From sequence record NC_052653.1: 64,000 nucleotides of DNA; one strand, given 5' to 3'. Positions 3,033 to 38,673 of the stretch are shown piece after piece (position 1 is the first letter of the stretch; every line of letters starts with the position of its first letter). This DNA comes from Escherichia phage vB_vPM_PD06. The translations under genes and the position numbers were made by a program. Under the pieces are notes generated by a model. That model saw nothing but the letters and a program-made list of their open reading frames with translations. It was not told the DNA's origin and did no database searches.

Positions 3033-3277
3033 TAATTATCCTCCTTATCAGGGGCAGGTGATCTGCCCCAACGTAAATCTATTAAATTCTTCATTAGTCT
3101 GGATGGTGTGATCATAAAAACAAAAGCCCAGCCCATCCATTCAGGAATTTCTTTATCAATTCCCAAATAAATAAACATACTGGACATAACAATCATACCA
3201 ATAGCATTCCAAACTTTAGTAGAACTGACTTTATTATCAGGATATGTACAAAACATACCTATTAAAAATTTTCTCAT
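3032..3277 (-). CDS. small membrane protein (two predicted hydrophobic helices)
   Basis: 81 aa with two hydrophobic stretches and a charged C-terminus; function unknown. Confidence 0.35.
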   Translation of the reverse strand: MRKFLIGMFCTYPDNKVSSTKVWNAIGMIVMSSMFIYLGIDKEIPEWMGWAFVFMITPSRLMKNLIDLRWGRSPAPDKEDN

Positions 3278-3582
3278 GGTGCGTTCTCATTACTTTTTAA
3301 ATCACGATATACAGCTAATTCCCCAAGGTCTACAGAACCCGCTGAATGCACAAGTACAGCAGCACTAAGACTAATGGCAGTAGTACCTGGGGCAATATCA
3401 GCAGGTAGGGAATACGCCCTTTGCGTCTCCTTATCATAGATAACCTTATACCCACCCAAATCCACACCAACTGAGAAGTAAACAACCTCAGATTGTTTAA
3501 CTCCAAAGTGACGGGCTACTGCTTGTTTATTGGTTAAGATTCCGGTTGAACCTTTACCACCTTGGGAGAACATTTCGTTCAT
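3274..3582 (-). CDS. hypothetical protein
   Basis: 102 aa ORF overlapping downstream gene start by 4 nt. Confidence 0.4.
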   Translation of the reverse strand: MNEMFSQGGKGSTGILTNKQAVARHFGVKQSEVVYFSVGVDLGGYKVIYDKETQRAYSLPADIAPGTTAISLSAAVLVHSAGSVDLGELAVYRDLKSNENAP

Positions 3583-3829
3583 AACAACCTCTTTGTTTTT
3601 CTAAGTAAGCCCCTCTTTGGAGGGGCTTGCAGTGGTAGTGACAACACTTTGAGTTAGTACGATAGTAACTAAAGACAAGATTAACCCTGCTACGATATGT
3701 TTTCATCATTTTATCACATGGCGATGACATGCGCTTGCAGGACATAGTTTGTATGGGTTGTGCGGAATGCCATTTTTGGCCTCTTGTCATCAATAAGTAA
3801 GTATTCATTTCCCCCGCCGAAGCGGGGTT

Positions 3830-5947
3830 TTATATTAAACCATACACTACATTGTGTATTGTTAAACTGCCAATCGAGTTCCCAACATTAAAATTCACCT
3901 CAGCCTTGTATGCTCCTTGAGGGACTGAATCCACTAAAGCATAAAAATTGAATGTGTCGCCTACTGGGATGTTATACCCTATGGAATCCGCAACAGCATT
4001 TCCTTGCTGGTCCAGGAATCTAATTGACGCCAGGGTTGTTGTTAGATTTTTAGCCCAAAAACCAAGCTGAAAATAACGACCAGGCTCACAATCAATGATT
4101 GTTTGGGTGAAATTAGCTGCTGCCTCAGCTGATGGTACAGATAAAACAAAAGAAGTTGAAAACATTAAATCATTAGGAACATCGTTTGCTGTAGTAGCAG
4201 TGACAACTCCTGTTCCAGTTTGCGATAGTGTCCAGTTAGATGTGTTTAAAAACTGTCCTGAGCCATTACTGATGCTATTAATATAAGGGCTTACAATGCT
4301 CCCTAAATTCCAGTTACTTGTGATAAATCCTGCCCGTGGATAGCACCCTCTGGACATTACTTTTTTGCTCGCGCCACCTATCAACTGTCTTGTGGGAAAT
4401 CCAGTAGCAATCGTTGTATTCCCATAGAGGGATAACGAGCAATTATTTAGGCTAACAACCCCATCGCCGTTGCTAACAATAGGTACACTGGTATACCCGT
4501 CTGGGAGTAGTATCGTCGAATTACTGACGGTTAATCGTGAACTGCCCTCCACAGTAAACCCAACGAAACTCTGACCAGGTTGGTACTCAATGTTACCGTT
4601 TGTGAAAACCACTGTTGCGTTATCGGATAGCGCAACAGCAGGGTCAAAATATCCTGATTTTTTACCTGCTGGCAGAGAGCAGCCATCGAATATAAATTGA
4701 CCATTAACAAATGTGAAAGGTCCACCGTTGTCAACCATCCAACAATGATTAAATCTTATAACTTCACCGGAATTTGCTGGTGAATTGAAAATAACAGAAT
4801 TTGTAAAACTTCTGGACAACGCACATTTATCAAAAAGAATACGATATGCATTATCAAGAAACTCAATCCCGGCAGTTGAGATAAACCCACTATTAGAGAT
4901 TCTTAACTCTGATACTTCACCACTGGTAGAACCACCGATAGCCAATTTCCTGGAACCTTTCCCGACGAATGACACACCACTAATCAAAGAAGTTGCGTTA
5001 ATTGCATCTCTGTTAGTGTAATCAGCGCCTGTATTAATGATGGTTAGGTAGTAGTCACCGGTTACAGATGAAGATTCTGTTAAAGTACATTTATTTTTTC
5101 CAATAAGTGCGCCTTTTGCTATGTCGAAAATAATTGGTGTTGTTATCTCTCCTGAAACAGGGACTACACAGTCAAACCCGGCAGCGTTTATTGTGTTGAT
5201 GAATACCGCCAAATCTTCGGTTCCAGTATAACCAGCATCATACACATCCACGGAACCATTGAAGAATTTTCTTTTCCATACCACACCGTTTCCGGGGAAG
5301 GTAACAATATTGTCTATAGCTGTATCCGCGCTAACAGCTACCATAATACCACCACCAAAGTTAAAACCGCTCACATACGAATCAAGTATTATGGAATCAC
5401 CAATTGATCCTGATATTGATGATAACTCAGAAACTGATGATGCAGTTCCTATATAAGACAAGCCATTTGTTTTATTTAAATCACCCCTCAGGGTGGCATC
5501 ACCAACACTAGCCCACGCACTAGGACCAACACCACCGGTTGATGTAGGGGTTGAGTCAGCGGGAACAGCTTTAGGGAAAGCACCACCCCATGTATAGCAC
5601 TGTCCACCTGCAATATACCAAACAGCATCAGTATTATTATTTAATGTAGCACCATCCTCAAAGCTACCATCAACAAGTGTTAACCCCGCTTCAGCAAGAC
5701 TACGACGCCACTGTTCACGATCATTAAGAAGATTGTTATTCAACTCTTCCTGAACAGTATTACCATTTGAGGATTGTATTAAATCTGCTCCATCTGTATC
5801 TTTCAACTGGGTGGCTAAAACCACCCCAGTGTCAGTAAGAAAATTAGAAACTGTGCTTTTAACGGTCTTATCAGGTTGGTCTAAAACTAGGTAATCAGAA
5901 CCATTAACTTTTGATGTTTCCGGTAAATTAGTAATTGTAGTTGACAT
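3830..5947 (-). CDS. tailspike protein with N-terminal anchor motif and beta-helix-like repeat body (putative polysaccharide depolymerase)
   Basis: 705 aa; N-terminus MSTTITNLPETSKVNGSDYLVLDQ...TVKSTVSNF is a tailspike anchor-type motif; long Gly/Ser/Asn-rich repetitive core typical of parallel beta-helix enzymes. Confidence 0.55.
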   Translation of the reverse strand: MSTTITNLPETSKVNGSDYLVLDQPDKTVKSTVSNFLTDTGVVLATQLKDTDGADLIQSSNGNTVQEELNNNLLNDREQWRRSLAEAGLTLVDGSFEDGATLNNNTDAVWYIAGGQCYTWGGAFPKAVPADSTPTSTGGVGPSAWASVGDATLRGDLNKTNGLSYIGTASSVSELSSISGSIGDSIILDSYVSGFNFGGGIMVAVSADTAIDNIVTFPGNGVVWKRKFFNGSVDVYDAGYTGTEDLAVFINTINAAGFDCVVPVSGEITTPIIFDIAKGALIGKNKCTLTESSSVTGDYYLTIINTGADYTNRDAINATSLISGVSFVGKGSRKLAIGGSTSGEVSELRISNSGFISTAGIEFLDNAYRILFDKCALSRSFTNSVIFNSPANSGEVIRFNHCWMVDNGGPFTFVNGQFIFDGCSLPAGKKSGYFDPAVALSDNATVVFTNGNIEYQPGQSFVGFTVEGSSRLTVSNSTILLPDGYTSVPIVSNGDGVVSLNNCSLSLYGNTTIATGFPTRQLIGGASKKVMSRGCYPRAGFITSNWNLGSIVSPYINSISNGSGQFLNTSNWTLSQTGTGVVTATTANDVPNDLMFSTSFVLSVPSAEAAANFTQTIIDCEPGRYFQLGFWAKNLTTTLASIRFLDQQGNAVADSIGYNIPVGDTFNFYALVDSVPQGAYKAEVNFNVGNSIGSLTIHNVVYGLI

Positions 5948-5955
5948 TTTTACTC

Positions 5956-8115
5956 CTATATATAAAATTTTTGTGTTGTTACTAAATCTTCTCCAGATTT
6001 AGTGGCTAATGTAATTCCACTTATAGTGGCAATCTCAACATTTACCTGTTTAAGAGTGATATCTTGCAAGTAGCAATTCAAAGGCACATTACCCATATAA
6101 AACACTTGGGATTTTGAATTAAGAACAGTTATTGAATCATGCATTATTTGTGGGTAAGCCCATATGTATTGATATAAACCAACAAACTTCTGATCATTCA
6201 ATACAATATTACCTATAATCATTTTCCACAAATATGTTCTGTAGTCTGATTCAGGATCAAAGCCATATAATGGTGCTAGAGTTGCGTCTGGAACAAACCC
6301 TGCAAGATAATGTATCTTATCATAACTAAAACCTAGTTGCTCATTAGGTATTTTGATAGCGTCGAAAGATCTTTCCATCTGACCTTCCAACAACCAGTCA
6401 TAACATTCTGAACAATAAAAGTCAAAGTTTTCTGGGATATAATAATCTTTAGGGAAGTTAACAAACTCCATCATACCGTTACCTAAAATGGATGGCACAA
6501 ATGGTAATAATGTAACTTTAGCTCCAGGATAGGCTAATTTAGTATCTGTTGCAAATTTAGCAACACGCAGTCCTAATGTTTTAGATAGGAATGCATAATA
6601 TTCATCATATGGTGTACCAGTTTTATAATTCTTAACTGTACCAACATCTTGTGCATATAATCCAGTTTCATTATTAAATGCAACTTTGGTTGCATAATCA
6701 TAAATACACGGGAGATTGGTAGCTGTGTTATACCACCACCACGGTTCACCAACCTGAATAATAACAGGAAGATCATTGGCAGCGGATATAGAAGCTATCT
6801 TATTTATTACACCTTGTAAATAATTCATCCCTTCATCAATTGAAGGAGATAAAACATAACTTGGTGGCTCATAACCTGTAGCAGCCAGATCATCATTCCA
6901 AGTATGTTGTACCCATTCTACAGGACACACTGTACTCATAAGTTCAAAACTTAAGGAGTTCATTACTGTGTAGCCCATAGCTTTTGCATTAGCGTGGAAA
7001 TTATCAAACCAGGCTTCTGTTGCTGGGTTTAAATATTCTGTTCTATTCAAAGCCCATTTATTAGATCCAGCATCCCAACTAAATTGATAATAGTGTGACA
7101 TACCATTATAATGGTTAATCATATCTCTATAACCTAATCTATAGGTGTTAGAAATAACTCGCTCTGGGGTTAGGTTATACATATCATCATAAGATGTACA
7201 CATTCTTATGGTGTGTGCTGGAACATTTAAATTACCCATATTCATCATACTATAACCCGTATCAGGTTCCAGTATGGTAAACTTAAAGGAAAGATCCTCA
7301 TTGTCTACAGGAATAATATCTTCAATTTCTTGATACCTTGTGGAGATCAAGGAGAAGAACATATTATCTATCTGTGTAGTGTCAACAACAATATCATTTT
7401 CTGGCCCAGATTTTAAATTTGAGAAATCTAATTTTATTGTTGCTGTTTTACCATCCTCTGAAACTTCTTCTGCATAAAAGTTTAGAGATACATAATGAAC
7501 TGTTTCATCCTTCAGTGTCACTGTTAAGGATGGCAATAATTTTTCTTCTTTTAATCCAGGAACACCTTGACTAAGTTCCATTTTAAACCAAAGTTTCTCT
7601 TTACTTAAGTCAGAATGTTCTTGGTAGCCTAATCCTTTGTGATCATATTTATCGTAAGTTGACCAAATAATCCCAGCAAGACCAGCCACTGTCCTATTAA
7701 CCATTCTTGCTGTGAAAGAATCACCATTAGAGATAATAGAACAACTTTCTGTTGCTTGAGAATCTATTGTCCAAAACTTAGGATCAAACATTCTAGACTT
7801 CACAACAGGCCAAGTTAGCGGGGTTGTATTCGATTGATTAGTCGTAATAACACAACGAATTTCTTCATTGATCATCATGTTATTTTGACTTATGCTAGTA
7901 ATCTCAAGAGTAAAATAAAGATCTAAAGAGTTTGCCGGACGTTCATATACATCAACCACCACAGTAGCAGAATCTGCATCAGAAGGGAACGTTACTGTTC
8001 CCTGTTTAGCTACATAATCTCTACCAGCGACCGCCGTTCCATCGACGGTCTTATAGCTGAATGAACTGGCATTTACTCTCGTATTTCGAGTTACAGTAAA
8101 AATAGCCTGTTTCAT
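5956..8115 (-). CDS. tail-associated protein with N-terminal Calx-beta-like domain and glycoside-hydrolase-like body
   Basis: 719 aa; N-terminal TVDGTAVAGRDYVAKQGTVTFPSDADSATVVVDV matches the Calx-beta signature; remainder aromatic-rich (PVIIQVGEPWWWY) like carbohydrate-active enzymes. Confidence 0.45.
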   Translation of the reverse strand: MKQAIFTVTRNTRVNASSFSYKTVDGTAVAGRDYVAKQGTVTFPSDADSATVVVDVYERPANSLDLYFTLEITSISQNNMMINEEIRCVITTNQSNTTPLTWPVVKSRMFDPKFWTIDSQATESCSIISNGDSFTARMVNRTVAGLAGIIWSTYDKYDHKGLGYQEHSDLSKEKLWFKMELSQGVPGLKEEKLLPSLTVTLKDETVHYVSLNFYAEEVSEDGKTATIKLDFSNLKSGPENDIVVDTTQIDNMFFSLISTRYQEIEDIIPVDNEDLSFKFTILEPDTGYSMMNMGNLNVPAHTIRMCTSYDDMYNLTPERVISNTYRLGYRDMINHYNGMSHYYQFSWDAGSNKWALNRTEYLNPATEAWFDNFHANAKAMGYTVMNSLSFELMSTVCPVEWVQHTWNDDLAATGYEPPSYVLSPSIDEGMNYLQGVINKIASISAANDLPVIIQVGEPWWWYNTATNLPCIYDYATKVAFNNETGLYAQDVGTVKNYKTGTPYDEYYAFLSKTLGLRVAKFATDTKLAYPGAKVTLLPFVPSILGNGMMEFVNFPKDYYIPENFDFYCSECYDWLLEGQMERSFDAIKIPNEQLGFSYDKIHYLAGFVPDATLAPLYGFDPESDYRTYLWKMIIGNIVLNDQKFVGLYQYIWAYPQIMHDSITVLNSKSQVFYMGNVPLNCYLQDITLKQVNVEIATISGITLATKSGEDLVTTQKFYI

Positions 8116-8123
8116 TATTTTCC

Positions 8124-11000
8124 TTATTTGGTTACATCAACACTAATATCATTCATAGTTAGAACAGTTAGTGTTGGTATGTTACTATTATCCAAAATTG
8201 GTAAAGCGTTTTGAGGGTTTAGTTTACGATACAAGGCATATAAACCAAAACCACGTAATAGTTCTCCAGCATGGAAACCAAAGAACATTCCGTTATCTGA
8301 ATCTGGGCGTGGTGCAACACTCCAGGAACCATTCATCGGATGGTTAGGGGAAAGCACAATATAGTTTTGCTGAATCAGATCAAAACATCTGTCTGCTACA
8401 ATACCAATGTTTGGAATTTGTGAATCATAACCTGCCAAGCCCATGATTGAACAACCCGCCATAAACAGTGCAGACATATGACTAGTAAAGTCATCTATAG
8501 GTGCAAGAACTGTACCATCTGGATTAAAGATAGTTGGTGTTCTTCCATCATTATTGTCTTGGAACCATTTAAGGTAGTTGATCCAATTTTTACAAACAGT
8601 TACTAGTTTTTCAGGAGGTGTTTCTCCTCTTTGTACAAGTTCGTATACAGCATGACAAGCACAGTAGAATGCACGAGCTTCATAACCATCCCACGCTTTT
8701 TCATTCCAGTGTTTCATTGTAAACGTATTAGGTTCACCGTATTTTCTTGCATCCCAACGATCCCACACATATGCTTGTGCCATAGGCCCAGGCATCACAG
8801 GATCAAACGTGTTATAAAACCACATTTGAGCATCATACAAGAAATCAATACTGTTGTTTAAACGTGTCCAATCAATATCCCTACCTGCGAAACAGTATAA
8901 GGAAGGATACTGGTATCCTGGGTATGGAATACCACGCCATCCATCGTATAATGCAGTGTTTGGGTCACTGATATTAGAGAATGGAATTATTCCTGGTGTG
9001 TAATTAAGACTATTTAACTTATAGTCAATAATAGTACAATCACCTAACTTAGCAGTATGAGGATTTGAAGCCTGTACAGTAATACGGAAGTACATGGTAT
9101 AATCATCACCAGAAGATGACGAATATCTTTCAGGTACATCGTTAATACAATAGAAATCTATTGTTCCTGTTAAACCATTGACAGGAGCCGTATCAAGAAC
9201 TAAATTTACCTGATCTACAGCAGTAAGATTTATTGCTGAAGGTTTAGGATCTGTTTCTGGATGATTAGGCTGGTAAGCACTTAACTTAAAAGCAGAGGCT
9301 GATAAAGTCTTCGTACTCCATGCCCCTTGCGTTTTAGGCAGCATAGCCCACCATCTCCAACCTTGAGCATCCGTGATAGTCATGTTAAAGTCATCTTCAT
9401 ATGTTCTATATGTAATAGACTTAACATTAGCTTTTGATGTAGGAGTTAACCAAAAACCAACAGTGATACCACCATCCGTATCCATTGATGCAGTAACAAT
9501 CTGGTCATTATTAGTTCCAGCAATACCTGTTACATACTTATATTGTACCACAGTATTGTCACCCCAGTCAACAATAATTCGCGGATCTGCGATAATATAT
9601 GTTCCACCACTAGGAGGGGTACTTCTCATAAAGCTGGATAGTGGAATATCCATGCTTGTCATATTAGCTGTACCTAGTGGTAAGCCACAACGGTAAGTTA
9701 CTGTGTTATTTTCATCTTTGGTCTTACTTAATTCCAACTCTGGACGGAAAAGAATACCATGTCCTGCGTCATCTACACCTTGAAACTGAACTCGTAATTT
9801 AGAGTTCTGATCAACTTTAAACCAAATGGATTGCTGTTCTAATGTTGTTTGAGCAGCAACATCTTGTCTAATAACAATATAACCTAAAGTATCTCTTGAA
9901 TATTTAGGTATTGCTGTAGATGGATACGAATAATCGTAAGAGATGCCATCTGTAAACGGAATAGTTGCATATGTAGACTTACGGAAGAATTTATCAAACA
10001 TATCAATGTTTGAGTAATCTTGACACACTAACAGTGAAGATTGCCAGCATAGCCAATATTTTCTTTCTCCTGTAATTTGGTACATCAGGTAATTAGCATC
10101 ACACCACCAAGTTTCGGCATCTGACGCATTATCCTGAAAGCCAATTTCTACCGGAACGTTAACTGGTCTGTTATGCCACATAGTGTTACGCTCCATTAAA
10201 TAACCACCGTGTTCAACAGGGTTACAAGTCGCATAGTTAAATTTATATGTACCGTTTACAGAAGTATTTTTTAGTTGAACTGTTCCGTATTGAGATGTTG
10301 GAAAACCTTCTTCTAAGATATTTCCATCCCAATCAACTTTACGTCCTAGACGATCAATGATCCAATCAACATCCCATTGATCTCCATTCTTAGACCAATC
10401 TGTTGTACCATCTGCATTAACAGCATATACTGTAGCGTTTACAGAGTTCCATCCTAGATTACCATTAAAAGCAAACCATGCTTTATCAAGGTATTCTCCC
10501 CAATGTGGAGCACCATGAGGAATAACTGTTCTACCGTTAGTCCACGTCATTAAGCTACCCTTAAAACCTCCGTGTGTAGGGTAGCCATCATCTGTAAGAG
10601 GATAGTGTGCAAGACGTGGTTCTTTACCGTTAATAATCCAGTTAGGGCGATATTTTGCTGGCGGATCTGGGATAGGTTGACCACCAAAGAAGTAATCTAT
10701 ATAGGCTTGCCAATATTTTTTAGCAGAGTCTAAATACTTTGTATCGCCGGAAGCCAGGTATGCATAAGCGCAACCAAGAATAAGCACGGATTGACCTTCT
10801 GTTGTAGCATCCCCGTTTGGTTGCCCTTCTTGAGCAGTCCAGTTTATAAAGTGTCTGTTATTAGCTAGAACGTTTTGTGGGTTTAATACATAGTGTTGCA
10901 CTGTAGGATCTACAGTTAAACCTGTATTACGATCTAAGAACTGAATATGTCCATCGATCAGTTGAAAAACATTGTCAATTCTGTGCTTAATTCTTGACAT
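8124..11000 (-). CDS. large tail-associated glycosidase-like protein (putative depolymerase catalytic subunit)
   Basis: 958 aa, Trp/Tyr-rich, no anchor motif of its own; start codon overlaps stop of the upstream anchor-motif ORF (TAATG). Confidence 0.45.
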   Translation of the reverse strand: MSRIKHRIDNVFQLIDGHIQFLDRNTGLTVDPTVQHYVLNPQNVLANNRHFINWTAQEGQPNGDATTEGQSVLILGCAYAYLASGDTKYLDSAKKYWQAYIDYFFGGQPIPDPPAKYRPNWIINGKEPRLAHYPLTDDGYPTHGGFKGSLMTWTNGRTVIPHGAPHWGEYLDKAWFAFNGNLGWNSVNATVYAVNADGTTDWSKNGDQWDVDWIIDRLGRKVDWDGNILEEGFPTSQYGTVQLKNTSVNGTYKFNYATCNPVEHGGYLMERNTMWHNRPVNVPVEIGFQDNASDAETWWCDANYLMYQITGERKYWLCWQSSLLVCQDYSNIDMFDKFFRKSTYATIPFTDGISYDYSYPSTAIPKYSRDTLGYIVIRQDVAAQTTLEQQSIWFKVDQNSKLRVQFQGVDDAGHGILFRPELELSKTKDENNTVTYRCGLPLGTANMTSMDIPLSSFMRSTPPSGGTYIIADPRIIVDWGDNTVVQYKYVTGIAGTNNDQIVTASMDTDGGITVGFWLTPTSKANVKSITYRTYEDDFNMTITDAQGWRWWAMLPKTQGAWSTKTLSASAFKLSAYQPNHPETDPKPSAINLTAVDQVNLVLDTAPVNGLTGTIDFYCINDVPERYSSSSGDDYTMYFRITVQASNPHTAKLGDCTIIDYKLNSLNYTPGIIPFSNISDPNTALYDGWRGIPYPGYQYPSLYCFAGRDIDWTRLNNSIDFLYDAQMWFYNTFDPVMPGPMAQAYVWDRWDARKYGEPNTFTMKHWNEKAWDGYEARAFYCACHAVYELVQRGETPPEKLVTVCKNWINYLKWFQDNNDGRTPTIFNPDGTVLAPIDDFTSHMSALFMAGCSIMGLAGYDSQIPNIGIVADRCFDLIQQNYIVLSPNHPMNGSWSVAPRPDSDNGMFFGFHAGELLRGFGLYALYRKLNPQNALPILDNSNIPTLTVLTMNDISVDVTK

Positions 11001-11473
11001 TAAATCACTCCTGCCATCACTAAACTACCTATCCAGGTAGCTCCATTATCATAACTAACAAATTCAAAAATATCTGTAGCTCCCTGTTTATAACTCAAAA
11101 CAGGAGCTCGACCAAAACTCCATTTAACAGATTGAGGCCACGTTACTTTATTTGCTCCACTTCCTTGACGTAGGGATAGAGTAAAGTTTTGAACAATGTT
11201 AGTTGTAACTGGAACATTACTAAATGAAATACTGCAAGTTGGACTAGATAAAGTGGCAGAGAAATACTCTGCCGTGCTAATATCTAAAGCTAGGGTATTT
11301 GTAACAGTACCCCTTGCAGAAAGACGATTTCGTGTAACACCAGCACCAGCAAGAAGAACACGTAATGATGTTTTCTTAGTGATGCCTGATTGATCTGTTA
11401 CAAAATAATCTGTGTCTGAAACAGATGTTGTTACAGGTAGATCAGACACCTTGATTGTAGTTAAATCAGCCAT
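11000..11473 (-). CDS. tailspike anchor/adaptor protein
   Basis: 157 aa; N-terminus MADLTTIKVSDLPVTTSVSDTDYFVTDQSGITKKTSL shares the anchor motif with the 3830-5947 tailspike. Confidence 0.45.
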   Translation of the reverse strand: MADLTTIKVSDLPVTTSVSDTDYFVTDQSGITKKTSLRVLLAGAGVTRNRLSARGTVTNTLALDISTAEYFSATLSSPTCSISFSNVPVTTNIVQNFTLSLRQGSGANKVTWPQSVKWSFGRAPVLSYKQGATDIFEFVSYDNGATWIGSLVMAGVI

Positions 11474-30882: not shown

Positions 30883-30958
30883 TGGTCGTGGTAAACGGAG
30901 TCGAACCGTTGTTTCTCGATTATCGGTCGAGTGTACTAACCATCTGTACGATACCACA
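30883..30958 (-). tRNA. tRNA-Ile (anticodon GAT)
   Basis: Hand fold: 7 bp acceptor (U1-G72), T arm AACGG/TTCGACT/CCGTT, anticodon stem CTCGA/TCGAG, loop CCGATAA (C at position 33 is unusual), CCA encoded. Confidence 0.55.
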
Positions 30959-30963
30959 ATAAT

Positions 30964-31060
30964 TGGCAGCAAGGTGAGGAATCGAACCCCTTGATCTATG
31001 GTTTGGAGCCATATTGAGTACCATACTCTTTTAAATCTACCCAGCTATGAGTTCCTTGAG
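30964..31060 (-). ncRNA. tRNA-like sequence with Trp-type (CCA) anticodon hairpin, non-canonical 5' half
   Basis: T arm AGGGG/TTCGATT/CCTCA, 3' acceptor CCTTGCT-G-CCA, perfect hairpin TATGG-CTCCAAA-CCATA and D-like GAGT...ACTC, but no matching 5' acceptor strand at canonical distance. Confidence 0.3.
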
Positions 31061-31104
31061 GTGTCAATGTAATTTAATCATTACACCAGAAGGGAGGTAT
31101 TTAG

Positions 31105-31183
31105 TGGAGGCGGGAATCGGATTTGAACCGATGATCTCCAGCATATGAAACTGGCGAGGACGACCAGACTCCTCTATCCCGCG
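31105..31183 (-). tRNA. tRNA with CAT anticodon (elongator Met or Ile2 type)
   Basis: T arm ATCGG/TTCAAAT/CCGAT, anticodon stem CCAGT/GCTGG, loop TTCATAT, 11-nt D loop; position 1-72 is an unpaired C-C. Confidence 0.5.
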
Positions 31184-31198
31184 CAATCTGTAATAATT

Positions 31199-31283
31199 TG
31201 GTAGCTAAGGTGAGACTCGAACTCACAATCCCTTGGGGCAATACGTTCTAAGCGTATCGTGTATACCATTCCACCACTTAGCC
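31199..31283 (-). tRNA. tRNA-Leu (anticodon TAG), type II
   Basis: 85 nt; acceptor GGCTAAG/CTTAGCT, anticodon stem ATACG/CGTAT, loop CTTAGAA, long variable arm, T arm GTGAG/TTCGAGT/CTCAC, CCA encoded. Confidence 0.6.
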
Positions 31284-31360
31284 ATAATAAGTACACCACT
31301 GTAAGAAGCCTCAATGTGCTATTGACAGTTAACCAAGTCTACTCCTTGGATGGTGTTATT

Positions 31361-31435
31361 TGGTGCAGAGAGATGGTAACGATCCATCCTTTCTACCTTT
31401 TCAGGGTAGCACTAATCCGTCTCAGCTATCTCTGC
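31361..31435 (-). tRNA. tRNA-Phe (anticodon GAA)
   Basis: Perfect acceptor GCAGAGA/TCTCTGC, anticodon stem CTACC/GGTAG, loop CTGAAAA; T loop ATCGTTA is atypical. Confidence 0.5.
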
Positions 31436-31440
31436 AAATT

Positions 31441-31516
31441 TGGTCAGTGCGGCAGGACTCGAACCTGCGACCTGAAGCGTCCAAGGCTCCCACGCTACCA
31501 ACTGCGCTACGCACTG
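31441..31516 (-). tRNA. tRNA-Pro (anticodon TGG)
   Basis: 76 nt; acceptor CAGTGCG/CGCACTG, D arm GCGC/AGTTGGTA/GCGT, anticodon loop CTTGGAC, T arm GCAGG/TTCGAGT/CCTGC, CCA encoded. Confidence 0.7.
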
Positions 31517-31523
31517 TAAATCT

Positions 31524-31598
31524 TGGCTGGAGATCTAGGAATCGAACCTAGTCATCACGACTTCAAAGGCCGTTGCCTTCCCACTAGGCTAATCTCCA
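31524..31598 (-). tRNA. tRNA-Gln (anticodon TTG)
   Basis: 75 nt; acceptor TGGAGAT/ATCTCCA, anticodon stem ACGGC/GTCGT, loop CTTTGAA, T arm CTAGG/TTCGATT/CCTAG, CCA encoded. Confidence 0.6.
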
Positions 31599-32029
31599 AT
31601 AAATTACTTCAGTGTTACCACAAAGTGACGAACTGCTTTTCGTGCAGCAGAAGCCAGAGGCTTAGCATACTTAAGTTCATCTTTTTCCATTATAAATTCT
31701 CTTTTAAATGAAAATGCAGGACTTATTGGCATTGCCTGCGCAAGCCCTCAAGGGGAACATAGGTTTTTGGATATTTAACGACCAGGATAACCATAAACCC
31801 GTCATCATTCACATTCAAGAGGTACACCATAAAACTGCCGGGGTCTTAAAACTATAATGATTCGCAAATCATTAATCAGACAGTTCGATGGCTCCTCGAT
31901 TTTAGCTCACACTAAGGCAGTGAATCTCCAATAAACTAAAAAATCACTTAAAAAGAACCGCTAGAGTTTGAAGGAGAAAACCATGAGCGAAAAGAGAAAT
32001 TTTCTCTAGCGATTCCATTTAAATAATCT

Positions 32030-32104
32030 TGGAGCGAGTAACAGGACTTGAACCTGCACCTGGAGGGTGGAAACCTCATATGCTACCATTAACACTATAC
32101 CCGC
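32030..32104 (-). tRNA. tRNA-Gly (anticodon TCC)
   Basis: 75 nt; acceptor GCGGGTA/TACTCGC, anticodon loop TTTCCAC closed by a 4 bp stem with one mismatch, T arm GCAGG/TTCAAGT/CCTGT, CCA encoded. Confidence 0.5.
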
Positions 32105-32159
32105 TTAACAATATTACTCTAACATACTATTAGCCCCTTTGTCAAGAGGCTTTTGATAC

Positions 32160-32489
32160 TTATTTTAAAATAGTAGATGCACCACGTCTGTTTAGATATG
32201 CAATAGTAAAGTCCAAATCACCTATTTCTTCAGGTTCCCACTGACCTTCTAAGCCATAACAAGAACAATGATATGCGTGTACTTCATAAAACAAAGATGT
32301 TTTCATATCATAAAAATAAACGTGAGATTCACCTTCATAATATGCACAATCATAAGTGGCAGAAAGAATTACAATGTTATCCTTATCTAACTCTACTTCA
32401 TAATATCTTTCAACATCTTCAATATCATCAAAACCATCGAAAACATTGATATTAAAATATTTCTCTAACTCTTTTTCTGTCACATACAC
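32160..32489 (-). CDS. hypothetical protein inside tRNA array
   Basis: 109 aa acidic, Tyr/Cys-rich ORF between tRNA-Gly and tRNA-Thr. Confidence 0.45.
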   Translation of the reverse strand: MYVTEKELEKYFNINVFDGFDDIEDVERYYEVELDKDNIVILSATYDCAYYEGESHVYFYDMKTSLFYEVHAYHCSCYGLEGQWEPEEIGDLDFTIAYLNRRGASTILK

Positions 32490-32506
32490 TCCTTTAGAGT
32501 TAAAAT

Positions 32507-32581
32507 TGGTGCTCCCACAAGGACTCGAACCCTGATAAGTTGCTTACAAGGCAACCGTAATAGCCGTTATACGATAGGAGC
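32507..32581 (-). tRNA. tRNA-Thr (anticodon TGT)
   Basis: 75 nt; acceptor GCTCCTA/TGGGAGC, anticodon stem GTTGC/GCAAC, loop CTTGTAA, T arm CAGGG/TTCGAGT/CCTTG, CCA encoded. Confidence 0.6.
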
Positions 32582-32587
32582 AATACT

Positions 32588-32664
32588 TGGACTCGGCAGG
32601 ATTCGATACCTGCAATTCCAGAAGCCTCTTGGCGACTGGGGGTTTACCTTAACTCTACAAGTCC
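32588..32664 (-). ncRNA. tRNA-like sequence, non-canonical interior
   Basis: 7 bp acceptor-like pairing GGACTTG/CGAGTCC and perfect T stem GCAGG/CCTGC around 8-nt loop TATCGAAT, but no canonical 5-7-5 anticodon arm. Confidence 0.25.
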
Positions 32665-32671
32665 ATAATTC

Positions 32672-32756
32672 TGGCGATGGATCAAGGATTTGAACCTTGC
32701 TAGAACTTTCGTTCACGGATTAACAGTCCGTCGCCCAACCACTAGGCCAATCCATC
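32672..32756 (-). tRNA. tRNA with Asn anticodon (GTT) and a long variable arm (type II-like)
   Basis: 85 nt; acceptor GATGGAT/ATCCATC, anticodon arm ACGGA-CTGTTAA-TCCGT, 15-nt variable region GAACGAAAGTTCTAG forming a GAAC/GTTC stem with GAAA loop, T arm CAAGG/TTCAAAT/CCTTG, CCA encoded. Confidence 0.5.
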
Positions 32757-32763
32757 TTTAATT

Positions 32764-32850
32764 TGGTGCAGGTAGTTGGACTCGAACCAACGAAGCCCCG
32801 AAGGGCAAGAGATTTACAGTCTCCAGCAATTGCCGCTATGCGATACCTAC
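32764..32850 (-). tRNA. tRNA-Tyr (anticodon GTA), type II
   Basis: 87 nt; acceptor GTAGGTA/TACCTGC, anticodon stem GGAGA/TCTCT, loop CTGTAAA, variable arm GCCC-TTCG-GGGC, T arm GTTGG/TTCGAGT/CCAAC, CCA encoded. Confidence 0.65.
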
Positions 32851-32855
32851 GTGTT

Positions 32856-32931
32856 TGGTACATCGTGAAGGATTCGAACCTTCGACCTTGGAGTTAAAAG
32901 CACCTTGCTCTACCAACTAAGCTAACGATGT
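32856..32931 (-). tRNA. tRNA-Lys (anticodon TTT) with weakly paired anticodon stem
   Basis: 76 nt; perfect acceptor ACATCGT/ACGATGT, D arm GCTT/AGTTGGTA/GAGC, T arm GAAGG/TTCGAAT/CCTTC; anticodon loop CTTTTAA flanked by AGGTG/CTCCA with two mismatches. Confidence 0.5.
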
Positions 32932-33065
32932 ATAAATTATCTTTAAAATAGCCAGTGTTTGCGGCACTTAGCTATGAAGTATTGGGGTATCGGTAAAGTG
33001 GTTACCGCCACTTGCCGAAAGTTTACTCTGCTAAAGTAAGATTACAAGCTACATTAAAGATAACT

Positions 33066-33151
33066 TGGCGGTAGATGTAGGACTTGAACCTACACGCCGT
33101 TTCCGACGACAGTTTAGCAAACTGTTGTGGCTACCATTTCACCAATCTACC
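33066..33151 (-). tRNA. tRNA-Ser (anticodon GCT), type II
   Basis: 86 nt; acceptor GGTAGAT/ATCTACC, anticodon stem ACAGT/ACTGT, loop TTGCTAA, variable arm CGTCG-GAAA-CGGCG, T arm GTAGG/TTCAAGT/CCTAC, CCA encoded. Confidence 0.65.
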
Positions 33152-33159
33152 GTTCTTAA

Positions 33160-33312
33160 TTATTCAAAACAACCGGAATCTTTTTGTTCTGCTTTTACCA
33201 TACGAATATTTTTACCATCTTCAGATTGTTGAAGATTAGAATACTCATAAACAACTTTATTATCTACAATCTTAACTCCGGTAACAACCTGTCCAATAGT
33301 TTTATAATTCAT
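33160..33312 (-). CDS. small hypothetical protein (50 aa)
   Basis: Six-frame ORF 33160-33360 overlaps tRNA-Ser at its 5' end; internal ATG at 33312 has AGGAG upstream. Confidence 0.3.
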   Translation of the reverse strand: MNYKTIGQVVTGVKIVDNKVVYEYSNLQQSEDGKNIRMVKAEQKDSGCFE

Positions 33313-33330
33313 AAAGCTCCTAGTTGAATT

Positions 33331-33420
33331 TGGAGGAAGATAATGGAGTCGAACCATCACCGTATCGCTACAATGGGCCAGGGTTCAAACCTGGTTGCGC
33401 ACCGCTGCGCCCTACCTTCC
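33331..33420 (-). tRNA. tRNA-Ser (anticodon TGA), type II
   Basis: 90 nt; acceptor GGAAGGT/ATCTTCC, anticodon stem CCAGG/CCTGG, loop TTTGAAC, ~19-nt variable arm, T arm GATGG/TTCGACT/CCATT, CCA encoded. Confidence 0.6.
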
Positions 33421-33435
33421 CGTTATCATACTTTA

Positions 33436-33465
33436 AATCTAACATAAAACTATCTTGCTTGTCAA
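33436..33465 (-). promoter_or_regulatory. candidate sigma70-like promoter inside tRNA array
   Basis: Minus strand TTGACA, 18-nt spacer, TAGATT; upstream of tRNA-Ser(TGA). Confidence 0.3.
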
Positions 33466-33483
33466 GTAGTTTTTAAAACTTTT

Positions 33484-33565
33484 TGGTCGGGGTGACAGGA
33501 TTCGAACCTGCATACTCCAATTACTCGGTTAACGCCTGATTAGAAGTCAGGTGAGATACACCCCG
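33484..33565 (-). ncRNA. tRNA-Arg(TCT)-like sequence lacking a canonical D arm
   Basis: 7 bp GC-rich acceptor CGGGGTG/CACCCCG, T arm GCAGG/TTCGAAT/CCTGT, perfect hairpin CCTGA-CTTCTAA-TCAGG, but only 7 nt between acceptor and that hairpin and a 23-nt insert before the T arm. Confidence 0.35.
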
Positions 33566-33637
33566 TTTTCACAGTAACTATAACAAAAAACTAAGTGAAT
33601 GTCAAGATATTTTTACTAAAATTATTATTTAAATTGA

Positions 33638-33743
33638 AGCCTAGTTATGGAATCGAACCATATTTCGTATTTAGTTAGACAAAGCGGTCTAACATATTTT
33701 TCAGGCTTTGATGGCCTCGGAATTACCAAATACCCTACTAGGC
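33638..33743 (-). ncRNA. 106-nt tRNA-like element
   Basis: T arm TATGG/TTCGATT/CCATA and exact 7 bp acceptor pairing GCCTAGT/ACTAGGC 106 nt apart; interior has hairpins AGGC-CATCAAA-GCCT and GTTAGAC-CGCTTT-GTCTAAC; no CCA encoded. Confidence 0.25.
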
Positions 33744-33745
33744 GT

Positions 33746-33831
33746 TGGTGCAAGTGGAGGGATTCGAACCCTCAATCATTTAAGCGTTGCGTTTTAAGCA
33801 CAATGTGTATCACCAATTCCACCACACTTGC
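33746..33831 (-). tRNA. tRNA-Leu (anticodon TAA), type II
   Basis: 86 nt; acceptor GCAAGTG/CACTTGC, anticodon stem TTGTG/CGCAA, loop CTTAAAA, T arm GAGGG/TTCGAAT/CCCTC, CCA encoded. Confidence 0.6.
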
Positions 33832-33862
33832 ATATAGGAGATGCATAGCATCTCCTTTTAAA

Positions 33863-33938
33863 TGGTGGTTCCCCAGGGTTACAATCCCTGCCCTCGACAC
33901 TTATGAGGTGTGCGCTCTCGTCAGTGAGCTATGGAACC
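33863..33938 (-). tRNA. tRNA with CAT anticodon (second copy; Met or Ile2 type)
   Basis: 76 nt; D arm GCTC/GAGC perfect, anticodon loop CTCATAA, T stem CAGGG/CCCTG with atypical loop ATTGTAA, acceptor has one mismatch at 7-66. Confidence 0.45.
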
Positions 33939-37460: not shown

Positions 37461-37510
37461 TATTATTTAATTAATAATAAAATTAATAAATAATTAATAA
37501 ATAATCTATT
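37461..37510. repeat. AT-rich tandem repeats (TTAATAA/ATAAATA units) in divergent intergenic region
   Basis: ttaattaataataaaattaataaataattaataaataatc between divergently transcribed prs and the plus-strand early genes. Confidence 0.5.
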
Positions 37511-37804
37511 GTTAGTATAGAGCATGTATGTTAGTATTATAGATATAACATAGTGCTATATGTAGACTACTCAGTTGTCTGTTAGATCATGTATCACAAG
37601 ATTAGATAACACCCCCTCGCTGCGCTCGGCGTTTTTCGGGGGTTAGGGTAGCATACTTTTTTGCGTTTGTCAACACCTTTTTGGATTATTTTTAAGTACA
37701 ACCTGAACCTCCTAAAAACGATTGTAACGAGTTTTACTGTGAGGTAAGGTGATTGCATATCTTAGAGGCTATTAGCTCGTTACAGAGCCATACAGGAGGG
37801 AATA

Positions 37805-38173
37805 ATGAGGGTCACACGTTACGTTAGAAGTGAAACAATAGATGGAGGCATAATGTATGCTTTCTACGATGATAAAACTTTTTGTTCTGCATTCTATGAA
37901 GAAGACTTGTCTACGGAATGGCAACAAATCATCTTCTTACTTGACATTTTGAAAAGAAGAGATAACTTTGAAGGTATTGAGTGGACAGTGGGAGGCAAAG
38001 TTATCGTTGCAGGTTTAAGCAAACATGAGTTGCTTGACTTAGACTGTAAACTTTGTAATTATCAATTCTCAAAACGTTTACCATTAGAAAGACAGTTAGG
38101 AGTTGAGATTCATGTTGACTTGGGCGATGGAGTATCCTATACTCTCAACAATCATAGTGCTGACGTTAATTAG
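37805..38173 (+). CDS. hypothetical early protein
   Basis: 122 aa ORF, first gene of plus-strand block. Confidence 0.4.
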   Translation: MRVTRYVRSETIDGGIMYAFYDDKTFCSAFYEEDLSTEWQQIIFLLDILKRRDNFEGIEWTVGGKVIVAGLSKHELLDLDCKLCNYQFSKRLPLERQLGVEIHVDLGDGVSYTLNNHSADVN

Positions 38174-38239
38174 TGGGATCACAAAGTGCGTAACAAGCAT
38201 TTGCGATTGTTTAACACATTTTAAACAAAGGAAAAATAA

Positions 38240-38437
38240 ATGAATCAAACTATGCAAACAATCTATAGAGTAATCCTTGGTGAGTTCCATGTTGTTAAGT
38301 CAACATTGAATTATGAAGAAGCTAAAGAGAATTTCTTGCTATGGGTTGAAGCATTCTCTGAAGTTGAAAAGGTAAGTTACAATTGTGTAACTTTAACTGC
38401 TGATCACGTACCTGTATTGGAGTTTATTAAGAAATGA
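38240..38437 (+). CDS. hypothetical protein
   Basis: 65 aa ORF with upstream AAGGAAAAA. Confidence 0.35.
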   Translation: MNQTMQTIYRVILGEFHVVKSTLNYEEAKENFLLWVEAFSEVEKVSYNCVTLTADHVPVLEFIKK

Positions 38438-38673
38438 AAAAAGAAATTTTAACTGATGTAACATATTCTTGTATTAGCAAAGGCGGTTTATATCGTGTAG
38501 TTGGCTTTCCTAAACCAGCGGGTGTATCTAAAGTATTTGATCCTGTTGTGATCTACGAAGATGTAAGGACTGGTCAACAGTATTGGCGATTCCAGCAAGA
38601 TTTCTTACACCGCATGGAGGTTGTTGATGGCGAAAACACCGAAGAAGCGATCCGTAACAAAGCGCGCATCTAA
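38434..38673 (+). CDS. hypothetical protein
   Basis: 79 aa ORF; start overlaps previous stop. Confidence 0.35.
   Translation: MKKEILTDVTYSCISKGGLYRVVGFPKPAGVSKVFDPVVIYEDVRTGQQYWRFQQDFLHRMEVVDGENTEEAIRNKARI

Follow-up and report, generated by a model that had tools for sequence, protein, structure and literature searches.

The region from position 3,830 to 11,473 of the analysed window (the whole 64,000-nucleotide stretch of Escherichia phage vB_vPM_PD06, NC_052653.1) spans gp140-gp141-gp142-gp143 in the gene cluster for lateral fibres and tailspikes of a phi92-like myovirus (Justusliebigvirus). The overall best explanation, which we consider highly probable, is that this locus joins one exchangeable, serotype-specific depolymerase to two genus-invariant proteins built of glycan modules. 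In phi92, the corresponding genes gp140–gp143 belong to the "multivalent adsorption apparatus", which Schwarzer et al. are said to have described in 2012. The arrangement itself is already known, as the genome has been deposited and the family analysed since 2012.

A phi92-type locus among baseplate genes

The gp140–gp143-type genes are adjacent on the minus strand and encode proteins of 157, 958, 719 and 705 amino acids (Table 1). A first-pass annotation had singled out the three large ones as neighboring tail genes of different architecture, which their coordinates and domains confirm. The cluster is flanked by the baseplate hub/spike genes on one side and by the wedge genes on the other, and phi92 gp134-gp146 are syntenic with it, the hub, central spike, sheath-initiator and wedge genes occurring in the same order. 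Phi92 DNA matches window positions 5796-11473 at 98.5% identity, and more than 25 Justusliebigviruses including phi92 match the gp140-gp142 DNA at 97.5-99%. Compared with phi92 gp140-gp143, gene order and flanking baseplate genes are the same and gp140, gp141 and gp142 are each ~98.5% identical at the DNA level, whereas the gp143 slot, filled in phi92 by an endosialidase for K1/K92 capsule that ends in a C-terminal chaperone domain, here holds a TSP4-type O-antigen spike. Escherichia phage vB_vPM_PD114 (MH675927) is for practical purposes the same phage: its arrangement is identical with scattered substitutions only (98.9% identity at 100% coverage of the region, and 99.7% for the spike with the ORFs that follow it), and its record labels the spike gene "hypothetical protein". 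The earlier proposal of a branched, multi-component receptor-binding apparatus is borne out: the phi92 family is the textbook case, a "Swiss army knife" that carries fibres of three types, one of which (fibre II) branches off at the base of fibre I (PMC8594841, PMC13450770).

Table 1. Features of the gp140-gp143 segment, in window coordinates
Feature	Position	Strand	Basis or remark
GC-rich hairpin CCCCGC-CGAA-GCGGGG, directly after spike stop codon	3812..3827	.	terminator-like site
Chimeric tailspike, 705 aa	3830..5947	-	phrog_4217, E = 3e-264; phi92 gp143 position
Spike body (D2, neck, D3', beta-helix D3, D4)	3833..5674	-	homologue of CBA120 TSP4 residues 425-1036, 82% identity
Spike "head" D2 domain (Tail_spike_N), aa 93-150	5498..5671	-	Pfam PF18668, E = 4e-18
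Spike N-terminal anchor, aa 1-54	5786..5947	-	phage-genus-specific; 51/54 residues as in phi92 gp143 N-terminus
gp142 homologue, 719 aa, whole gene	5956..8115	-	phrog_6040, E = 0; phi92 gp142 position
gp142 TIM barrel, aa 299-660	6136..7221	-	glycosidase fold
gp142 NCTSP_N domain, aa 109-268	7312..7791	-	Pfam PF23844, E = 5e-21
gp142 Calx-beta domain, aa 4-80	7876..8106	-	Pfam PF03160, E = 1.7e-9
gp141 homologue, 958 aa	8124..11000	-	predicted (alpha/alpha)6 barrel with beta-sandwich inserts
gp140 homologue, 157 aa, small fibre or adaptor	11000..11473	-	phrog_9017 "tail fiber protein", E = 1e-69; phi92 gp140 position

The exchangeable tailspike

To judge from its sequence, the 705-residue product is a trimeric tailspike made by module swapping. 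Over residues 1-54 it is 94% identical to the phi92 endosialidase gp143, with no similarity further on, and phi92 DNA homology stops at about window position 5796, within the spike gene. For AV123, KKE7M and PaulScherrer, Justusliebigviruses with other spikes, DNA homology stops at about position 5492, corresponding to about residue 152. The recombination boundary is the end of the D2 domain, in agreement with the conserved motif that precedes the receptor-binding domain (RBD) (PMC10408124).

Residues 92–705 are 82% identical over 614 residues to CBA120 orf213 (TSP4; PDB 5w6h, matched with 1125 bits), an Ackermannviridae spike whose domain scheme has been described (PMC8825819). The D2-neck-D3'-D3-D4 body has the same length in both proteins, with one 2-residue gap only; it differs from TSP4 at 18% of residues, and the O78 specificity discussed below rests on homology to the tested protein. 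Collinear alignment to residues 85-697 of the solved chain 5w6h_A brings with it the trimeric beta-helix D3 and the C-terminal D4. CBA120 TSP4 differs in possessing 424 N-terminal residues (the baseplate anchor AD, the branching domains XD1-XD3, and D1) that are absent here: the alignment begins at TSP4 residue 425, and the residues upstream, where AD-XD1-XD2-XD3 would stand, are phi92-type. Lacking those domains, the spike is unable to nucleate a branched TSP complex of the CBA120 kind; it has the phi92 anchor instead. As we envisage it, the 54-residue anchor would dock on a phi92-type fibre and be followed by the D2 head and the Ackermannviridae TSP4-type beta-helix body.

CBA120 TSP4 cleaves the O78 O-antigen, and phage S117 forms plaques on E. 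coli O78 once it has received tsp4 (PMC8825819, PMC10408124, PMC11414711). Assignment to the O78 subtype calls for a receptor-binding body that shares ~75% or more of its amino acids with an O78 spike verified by experiment (PMC10408124), a value that the 82% over 614 residues exceeds. The spike most likely binds and cleaves the E. coli O78 O-antigen, and this cleavage would let the virion work through the lipopolysaccharide layer of O78 strains such as avian-pathogenic E. coli (APEC). A change of specificity to a glycan other than O78, brought about by the 18% of residues that differ from TSP4, we regard as improbable; a literature search gave no host serotype for PD114, which leaves room for this reading, but published subtype analyses find the O78-subtype specificity unchanged above 75% amino-acid identity, and in many cases far below that value (PMC10408124), and the nearest DNA relatives outside PD114 include the spikes of five phages isolated on O78 hosts (phiHAO78-1, ASO78B, AVIO78A, EC1-UPM and phiWAO78-1).

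Promoter and terminator scans gave results at or below shuffled expectation; the one informative site is the hairpin that follows the spike stop codon. This hairpin corresponds, by position only and with the sequences unaligned, to the conserved post-RBD "motif three" terminator (PMC10408124). Two ORFs that phi92 lacks follow the spike. The 102-residue ORF is an orphan TSP "D1 head" domain, and a search with the 84-residue ORF returned no match; the idea that the two are what is left of the phi92 endosialidase, or of the chaperone domain of that enzyme, was rejected on comparison.

Two genus-invariant proteins with glycosidase-type folds

The gp142 homologue (AF2 model, pLDDT 90.5) consists of a Calx-beta domain, an NCTSP_N domain and a TIM barrel. 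The Calx-beta domain passes the Pfam gathering threshold (38.1 bits vs 27), is matched by Na/Ca-exchanger CBD entries in the PDB (E = 4e-4) and is limited, within the gp142 family, to phi92/rV5-like members. Both Pfam domains of the NCTSP module (PF23844 and PF23845) score above threshold, with a structural match to the phage N4 proteins, and the gp142 family profile aligns with the NCTSP_N portion of N4 gp65 (residues 44-129). The N4 gp65/gp64 sheath (PDB 9lc0, 9yf4) thus contains a homologous NCTSP_N and TIM barrel with pocket residues conserved in gp142, yet N4 divides the module, gp65 residues 44-417 comprising NCTSP_N and the first part of the barrel and gp64 residues 111-410 the rest. 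Furthermore, gp65/gp64 form a sheath round a podovirus tail, whereas gp142 is one chain with an N-terminal Calx-beta domain in a contractile-tailed phage: the source phage is syntenic with phi92 tail genes gp130 and gp131, which are assigned to the contractile tail (PMC13450770). It has no non-contractile sheath around a podovirus tail tube, and the NCTSP family name does not describe the role of gp142 here. The barrel has the (beta/alpha)8 fold of TIM-barrel glycoside hydrolases (GH14, GH42, GH153 and similar), with no GH Pfam match at E <= 0.1, and its invariant residues are E391, E457 (in GEPWWW), E570 and D310/D311. No CE4/NodB domain was found, and the "poly-GlcNAc deacetylase" (CE4) label given in several GenBank records and in PMC8594841 is rejected on this ground.

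The predicted structure of gp141 shows the six-hairpin fold of (alpha/alpha)6-barrel glycosidases (GH8, GH76, GH105). Unlike GH8, GH76, GH105/GH88 and the AGE-type epimerases, to which it is 7-12% identical with no sequence-level relation and no Pfam or profile match, its barrel is broken by ~480 residues of beta-sandwich inserts, predicted at about residues 120-292 and 350-660, the second being CBM-like. Its sequence has no Pfam match, no similarity to N4 gp65/gp64 and no solved relative in the PDB at E <= 10, by single sequence or by a 35-sequence profile; the rest of the window contains no paralogue of gp141 or of gp142. The invariant residues are D64, E68, D294, D750 and E913. Homologues of gp141 are encoded next to genes for the tail tube or the baseplate. 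A Pseudomonas P2-like prophage, for example, has the gene order J - I - gp140-like - gp141-like - fibre; the gene immediately upstream of its gp141-like gene encodes a C-terminal domain like that of gp140 (47% identity). Natural fusions join Tail_P2_I to a gp141-like protein (P0083) and a gp141-like protein to NCTSP_N plus TIM (P0098). Distant gp141 homologues also occur without any NCTSP partner, so the two proteins need not always act together.

Among related phages the spike gene is the only one of the three large genes that varies; gp141 and gp142 retain 97.5-99% DNA identity across Justusliebigviruses from different hosts. These two proteins therefore cannot explain differences in host range, capsule or O-antigen. 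This bears on the expectation that the three products are independent depolymerase spikes, each for a different capsule, O-antigen or exopolysaccharide and jointly conferring a multi-serotype host range, which now appears highly improbable. The carbohydrate-active-like folds predicted for all three did turn out to be glycosidase-type, phi92 gp141 and gp142 appear under "glycosidase" in an older review (PMC5380687), and a GenBank label reads "lateral tail fiber with several glycosidase domains". However, gp141 and gp142 are not trimeric beta-helix spikes but are confidently modelled as single chains of globular domains, the spike varies with host range and they do not, and gp142-type modules are tied to a conserved rather than a serotype-variable glycan (PMC11990801). 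The term depolymerase-type spike fits the 705-residue protein, a trimeric beta-helix of the validated CBA120 TSP4 type, and fails for the globular multidomain proteins of 719 and 958 residues; the variable specificity ascribed to these two is largely refuted by their invariance across host ranges.

A second alternative gives gp141 and gp142 a structural role only: their folds, though enzyme-like, would have been exapted as rigid blocks of a fibre arm with neither glycan binding nor catalysis, and polysaccharide would be contacted only by the spike and by gp150/gp151-type proteins encoded outside the window. Near-invariance among phages with different hosts would suit this account, as would the position of gp141 homologues beside tail-tube and baseplate genes, typical of structural proteins, and the lack of any CAZy-type Pfam match for either protein; the N4 homologues, moreover, are described only as a non-contractile sheath anchoring the tail plug, with no activity reported (PMC13434306). 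We nonetheless judge it unlikely. Conservation in both proteins is concentrated in the barrels, where invariant Asp, Glu, His, Trp and Tyr cluster across families that are only 30-45% identical, and the N4 chains have retained these residues even though two proteins share the module there. The CBM-like inserts of gp141 also speak against a purely structural role, as does the published genetics that ties phages with the NCTSP module to dependence on the NGR glycan (PMC8594841, PMC11990801), N4 and phi92-like phages both being NGR-dependent (PMC11990801). More likely, gp141 and gp142 act as a scaffold for the fibres and bind a conserved glycan, for example NGR, which they may also process; catalysis is putative for both. 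From homology and the published genetics, gp142 (Calx-beta, NCTSP_N and TIM barrel) would be the single-chain equivalent of the N4 gp65 plus gp64 module; it most likely recognizes the conserved NGR glycan and may process it.

Placement in the virion and implications

Neither gp141 nor gp142 was placed in the 2026 cryo-EM study of phi92, so that indirect evidence has to tell whether and where the virion contains them. That study screened only fibre-like predicted folds, and the two proteins are neither mentioned nor listed among its fibre candidates (PMC13450770). We propose that gp141 would be a widely distributed tail accessory protein, encoded beside baseplate or tail-tube genes; it most likely sits near the baseplate, a position that we infer, and binds glycan. 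Together, gp141 and gp142 may form a non-fibrous arm carrying the trimeric spike and the small gp140 fibre. Tentatively, and at somewhat less than even chances, we equate the pair with the unassigned non-fibrous density at the periphery of the phi92 baseplate, namely the L-shaped arm of fibre I and/or the base of fibre II. The arm would then be a monomeric chain of glycosidase-fold and CBM-like domains docked on the wedge, the myovirus counterpart of the N4 gp65/gp64 "sheath", and it would present the swappable trimeric spike and gp140 through their common N-terminal motif (37% identity over 38 N-terminal residues), which was sought in the N-termini of gp150 and gp151 and is absent there. If this is true, one NGR-engaging module serves podo-, myo- and siphoviruses, as a single chain here and divided in two in N4.

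The spike type has practical weight: O78 ranks among the major serogroups of avian-pathogenic E. coli, and phages of this type are thus of interest for the treatment and typing of APEC. Overall, the locus offers a textbook case of a broad-host-range phage in which a single swappable, serotype-specific spike stands beside glycan-recognition modules that do not vary. What scientific interest remains attaches to gp141 and gp142, large and deeply conserved proteins that occur in phages of all three tail morphotypes; knowing their place would complete the model of the phi92 baseplate and would test whether the N4 "sheath" and the "lateral fibre" proteins are one functional device.

Genomic setting of the adsorption locus

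The segment 3830-11473 of the window is filled by four close-packed minus-strand genes (see table); the coordinates and protein lengths given in the first-pass annotation prove exact. All four proteins match phage tail PHROGs (E = 0 to 1e-69), and the ORFs are genuine genes. On their 5' side in the sense of transcription lie a baseplate hub (PF22759), the central spike and a wedge-related protein; on their 3' side lie wedge genes (Baseplate_J-like and DUF2612). A megablast search of the region against GenBank phages returned one full-length match, Escherichia phage vB_vPM_PD114 (100% coverage, 98.9% identity), which is 99.7% identical over the 705-aa tailspike (hereafter the spike) and the ORFs downstream of it. 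More than 25 further Justusliebigvirus genomes, including phi92, PaulScherrer/Bas60, VEcB and alia, align over the gp140-gp142 part only (97.5-99% identity). By the annotated phi92 record the genes are gp140, gp141, gp142 and the slot that in phi92 holds the endosialidase gp143; the region thus belongs to the phi92 "multivalent adsorption apparatus", on record since 2012 and nicknamed a "nanosized Swiss army knife" (PMC8594841, PMC5380687). In the BASEL annotation of PaulScherrer the three homologues are already labeled "lateral tail fiber protein with several glycosidase domains", "…with glycosidase and deacetylase domains" and "…with hydrolase domains". With a near-identical genome deposited and the family studied for more than 10 years, the locus is already known and of low interest, except for what gp141 and gp142 do and where they sit.

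Features of the window and domains of gp142
Feature	Position	Strand	Remark
157-aa gene (gp140 homologue)	11000-11473	minus	
958-aa gene (gp141 homologue)	8124-11000	minus	
719-aa gene (gp142 homologue)	5956-8115	minus	
Calx-beta	gp142 residues 4-80		Pfam E = 1.7e-9
NCTSP_N	gp142 residues 109-268		Pfam E = 5e-21
TIM-barrel_NCTSP	gp142 residues 299-660		Pfam E = 4e-82
705-aa gene (spike)	3830-5947	minus	
84-aa Cys-rich ORF	3554-3808	minus	between spike terminator hairpin and 102-aa ORF
102-aa ORF	3274-3582	minus	downstream of spike
Gene left of gp146 homologue	1-899	minus	cut by window start
tRNA cluster	30883-33938	minus	15 genes in ~3 kb

By synteny with PD114 and phi92, the gene cut by the window start is that of the short tail fibre gp147 (fibre III), and the adsorption cluster therefore extends past the window, within which gp147 is incomplete and gp150 and gp151 are absent. 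Elsewhere, the tRNA cluster includes two genes each for tRNA-Met, tRNA-Leu and tRNA-Ser; such clusters are typical of phi92-like genomes. At ~37500-38500 the GC skew changes sign (about -0.06 to +0.21) and minus-strand coding gives way to plus-strand coding; this point is a divergent transcription boundary that separates the structural module from the remaining half of the window.

A chimeric O78-type spike

The spike combines pieces of different origin. Residues 1-54 share 94% identity with the phi92 gp143 N-terminus, with no similarity past that point; residues 93-150 form a Tail_spike_N domain (Pfam); and residues 92-705 align almost gap-free, at 82% identity, with residues 425-1036 of CBA120 TSP4 (orf213), with a 1125-bit match to the solved chain 5w6h_A. 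In TSP4 the matched stretch spans the D2 head domain, neck, D3', catalytic beta-helix D3 and D4 (PMC8825819). TSP4 cleaves the E. coli O78 O-antigen (PMC8825819, PMC10408124), and phage S117 given tsp4 forms plaques on O78 (PMC11414711). The DNA of the spike body also matches spikes of O78-isolated phages from several families (phiHAO78-1, ASO78B, AVIO78A, EC1-UPM and phiWAO78-1). Two breakpoints are visible: DNA homology to phi92 stops at about residue 50, and homology to Justusliebigviruses with other spikes stops at about residue 152, coincident with a pre-RBD recombination motif conserved in Justusliebigvirus and five other genera (PMC10408124). A GC-rich hairpin 3' of the stop codon, matched by position, lies where the same study puts a conserved terminator motif. 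Unlike TSP4 of CBA120, the spike lacks the AD-XD1-XD3 and D1 domains; judged from these alignments, it joins an O78-type body to a phi92 anchor and is no branching hub of the CBA120 kind.

The D1 'head' domain missing from the spike is found downstream: the 102-aa ORF is 64% identical to TSP4 residues 346-420, also aligns with the initial ~94 residues of many tailspike PHROGs and looks like an orphan fragment from the 5' end of a second spike gene. It is retained in other Justusliebigviruses, with the annotation 'tailspike protein' in PD114 and PaulScherrer, and might serve as a landing pad for recombination or as a small, functional head domain. For the neighboring 84-aa ORF neither Pfam nor PHROG gave a match, and it does not resemble the phi92 endosialidase; it may not be a gene.

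Conserved barrel proteins gp141 and gp142

The "hydrolase-like body" ascribed to gp142 was right at the level of fold: the protein carries, after its Calx-beta domain, the NCTSP_N domain and TIM barrel of the NCTSP family, whose N4 members form that phage's sheath, and matches the C-terminal hydrolase domain of PgaB. No CE4 domain was detected in gp142, and PgaB's full name is the probable source of the 'deacetylase' label found in GenBank records and PMC8594841. Across the family (~30% identity) 43 of 371 barrel positions are invariant, including H301, D310, D311, H335, E391, E457 (in GEPWWW), D565 and E570, compared with 3 of 186 in NCTSP_N and 0 in the Calx-beta part, a pattern that fits a conserved pocket.

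In N4 (EF056009, locus L010 6758-12192) the module appears divided over two chains, whereas gp142 holds it in one. Positions 69-320 of the gp142 family profile (NCTSP_N and the start of the barrel) match gp65 residues 44-417, and positions 337-644 (the rest of the barrel) match gp64 residues 111-410; the segments do not overlap, and no extra gp65 match emerged with the HMMER speed filters off. Both halves retain the conserved residues of the gp142 family and are separated by ~960 unrelated gp65 residues, gene 65 lying 32 nt upstream of gene 64. The N4 structure paper does not comment on this division (PMC13434306). Published genetics link the gp142-type module with a glycan that is conserved: the surface glycan NGR is required both by N4 and by the Justusliebigviruses Bas60-62, all of which are able to bypass O-antigen (PMC8594841, PMC8669472, PMC11990801).

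As first described, gp141 is rich in aromatic residues (3.4% Trp, 9.3% Trp+Tyr) and ranks first in this among 12 proteins sampled from the window. It has no Pfam match and no PDB sequence match, including with a 35-sequence profile at E <= 10. Its AlphaFold2 model (pLDDT 86.7, pTM 0.82) has helix pairs at both chain ends and beta-rich inserts between them, in which Foldseek found jelly rolls resembling CBM11 and CBM22. Invariant positions make up 13-16% of the barrel and first insert and 4% of the CBM-like second insert. The term "glycosidase-like" is thus supported for the fold and no further.

Each of the two families comprises ~300 clusters (E <= 1e-5), found in phages of very different kinds. 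The gene order in a Pseudomonas P2-like prophage is Baseplate_J, Tail_P2_I, gp140-like (47% identity in the C-terminal domain), gp141-like and tail fibre. In an E. coli siphovirus-type prophage (L006/L007 10001-12823) a gp141 homologue (55% identity) lies directly 3' of a 560-aa gene, probably for the tail tube (weak Pfam match), implying that the family also decorates non-contractile tails. An SU10-like podovirus contig (L009 6691-11364, Logan SRR10874396) encodes a single 1557-aa protein, a natural gp141-gp142 fusion, composed of gp141-like, NCTSP_N and TIM-barrel parts; its gene directly follows a 255-aa ORF, itself after an SU10-type adaptor gene. In a separate cluster Tail_P2_I is fused to a gp141-like part, and gp142-type modules elsewhere bear other N- or C-terminal attachment domains (DUF7941, DUF2460). 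These fusions and neighborhoods suggest that gp141 attaches near the baseplate wedge and that gp141 and gp142 can work as one unit.

Placement on the virion and division of labor

The 2026 cryo-EM study of phi92 describes three fibre types (PMC13450770): the L-shaped fibre I, on the wedge protein gp145, whose arm has no protein assignment and at whose tip gp143 was inferred; fibre II, also without assignment, which connects to the base of fibre I; and fibre III, which is gp147. Because the screen took only fibre-like predicted folds, gp141 and gp142 are absent from that study, and our preferred reading is that they would form the missing arm of fibre I. The spike and gp140 have a common N-terminal motif (…LPxT[ST]xVxxxDYxVxDQ…), which gp150 and gp151 lack, suggesting that the two use docking sites of one kind.

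The original observation and its fold-level descriptions are confirmed. The interpretation is right in part: the apparatus is multivalent and branched, but rather than three depolymerases directed at three variable polysaccharides it holds one true depolymerase spike alongside gp141 and gp142, which are conserved accessory proteins of predicted glycosidase fold. In our working model, the invariant gp141 and gp142 would probably recognize, in a generic manner, a surface glycan that is conserved and would also act as a scaffold, and the exchangeable spike would probably provide serotype-specific degradation, here of the O78 O-antigen.
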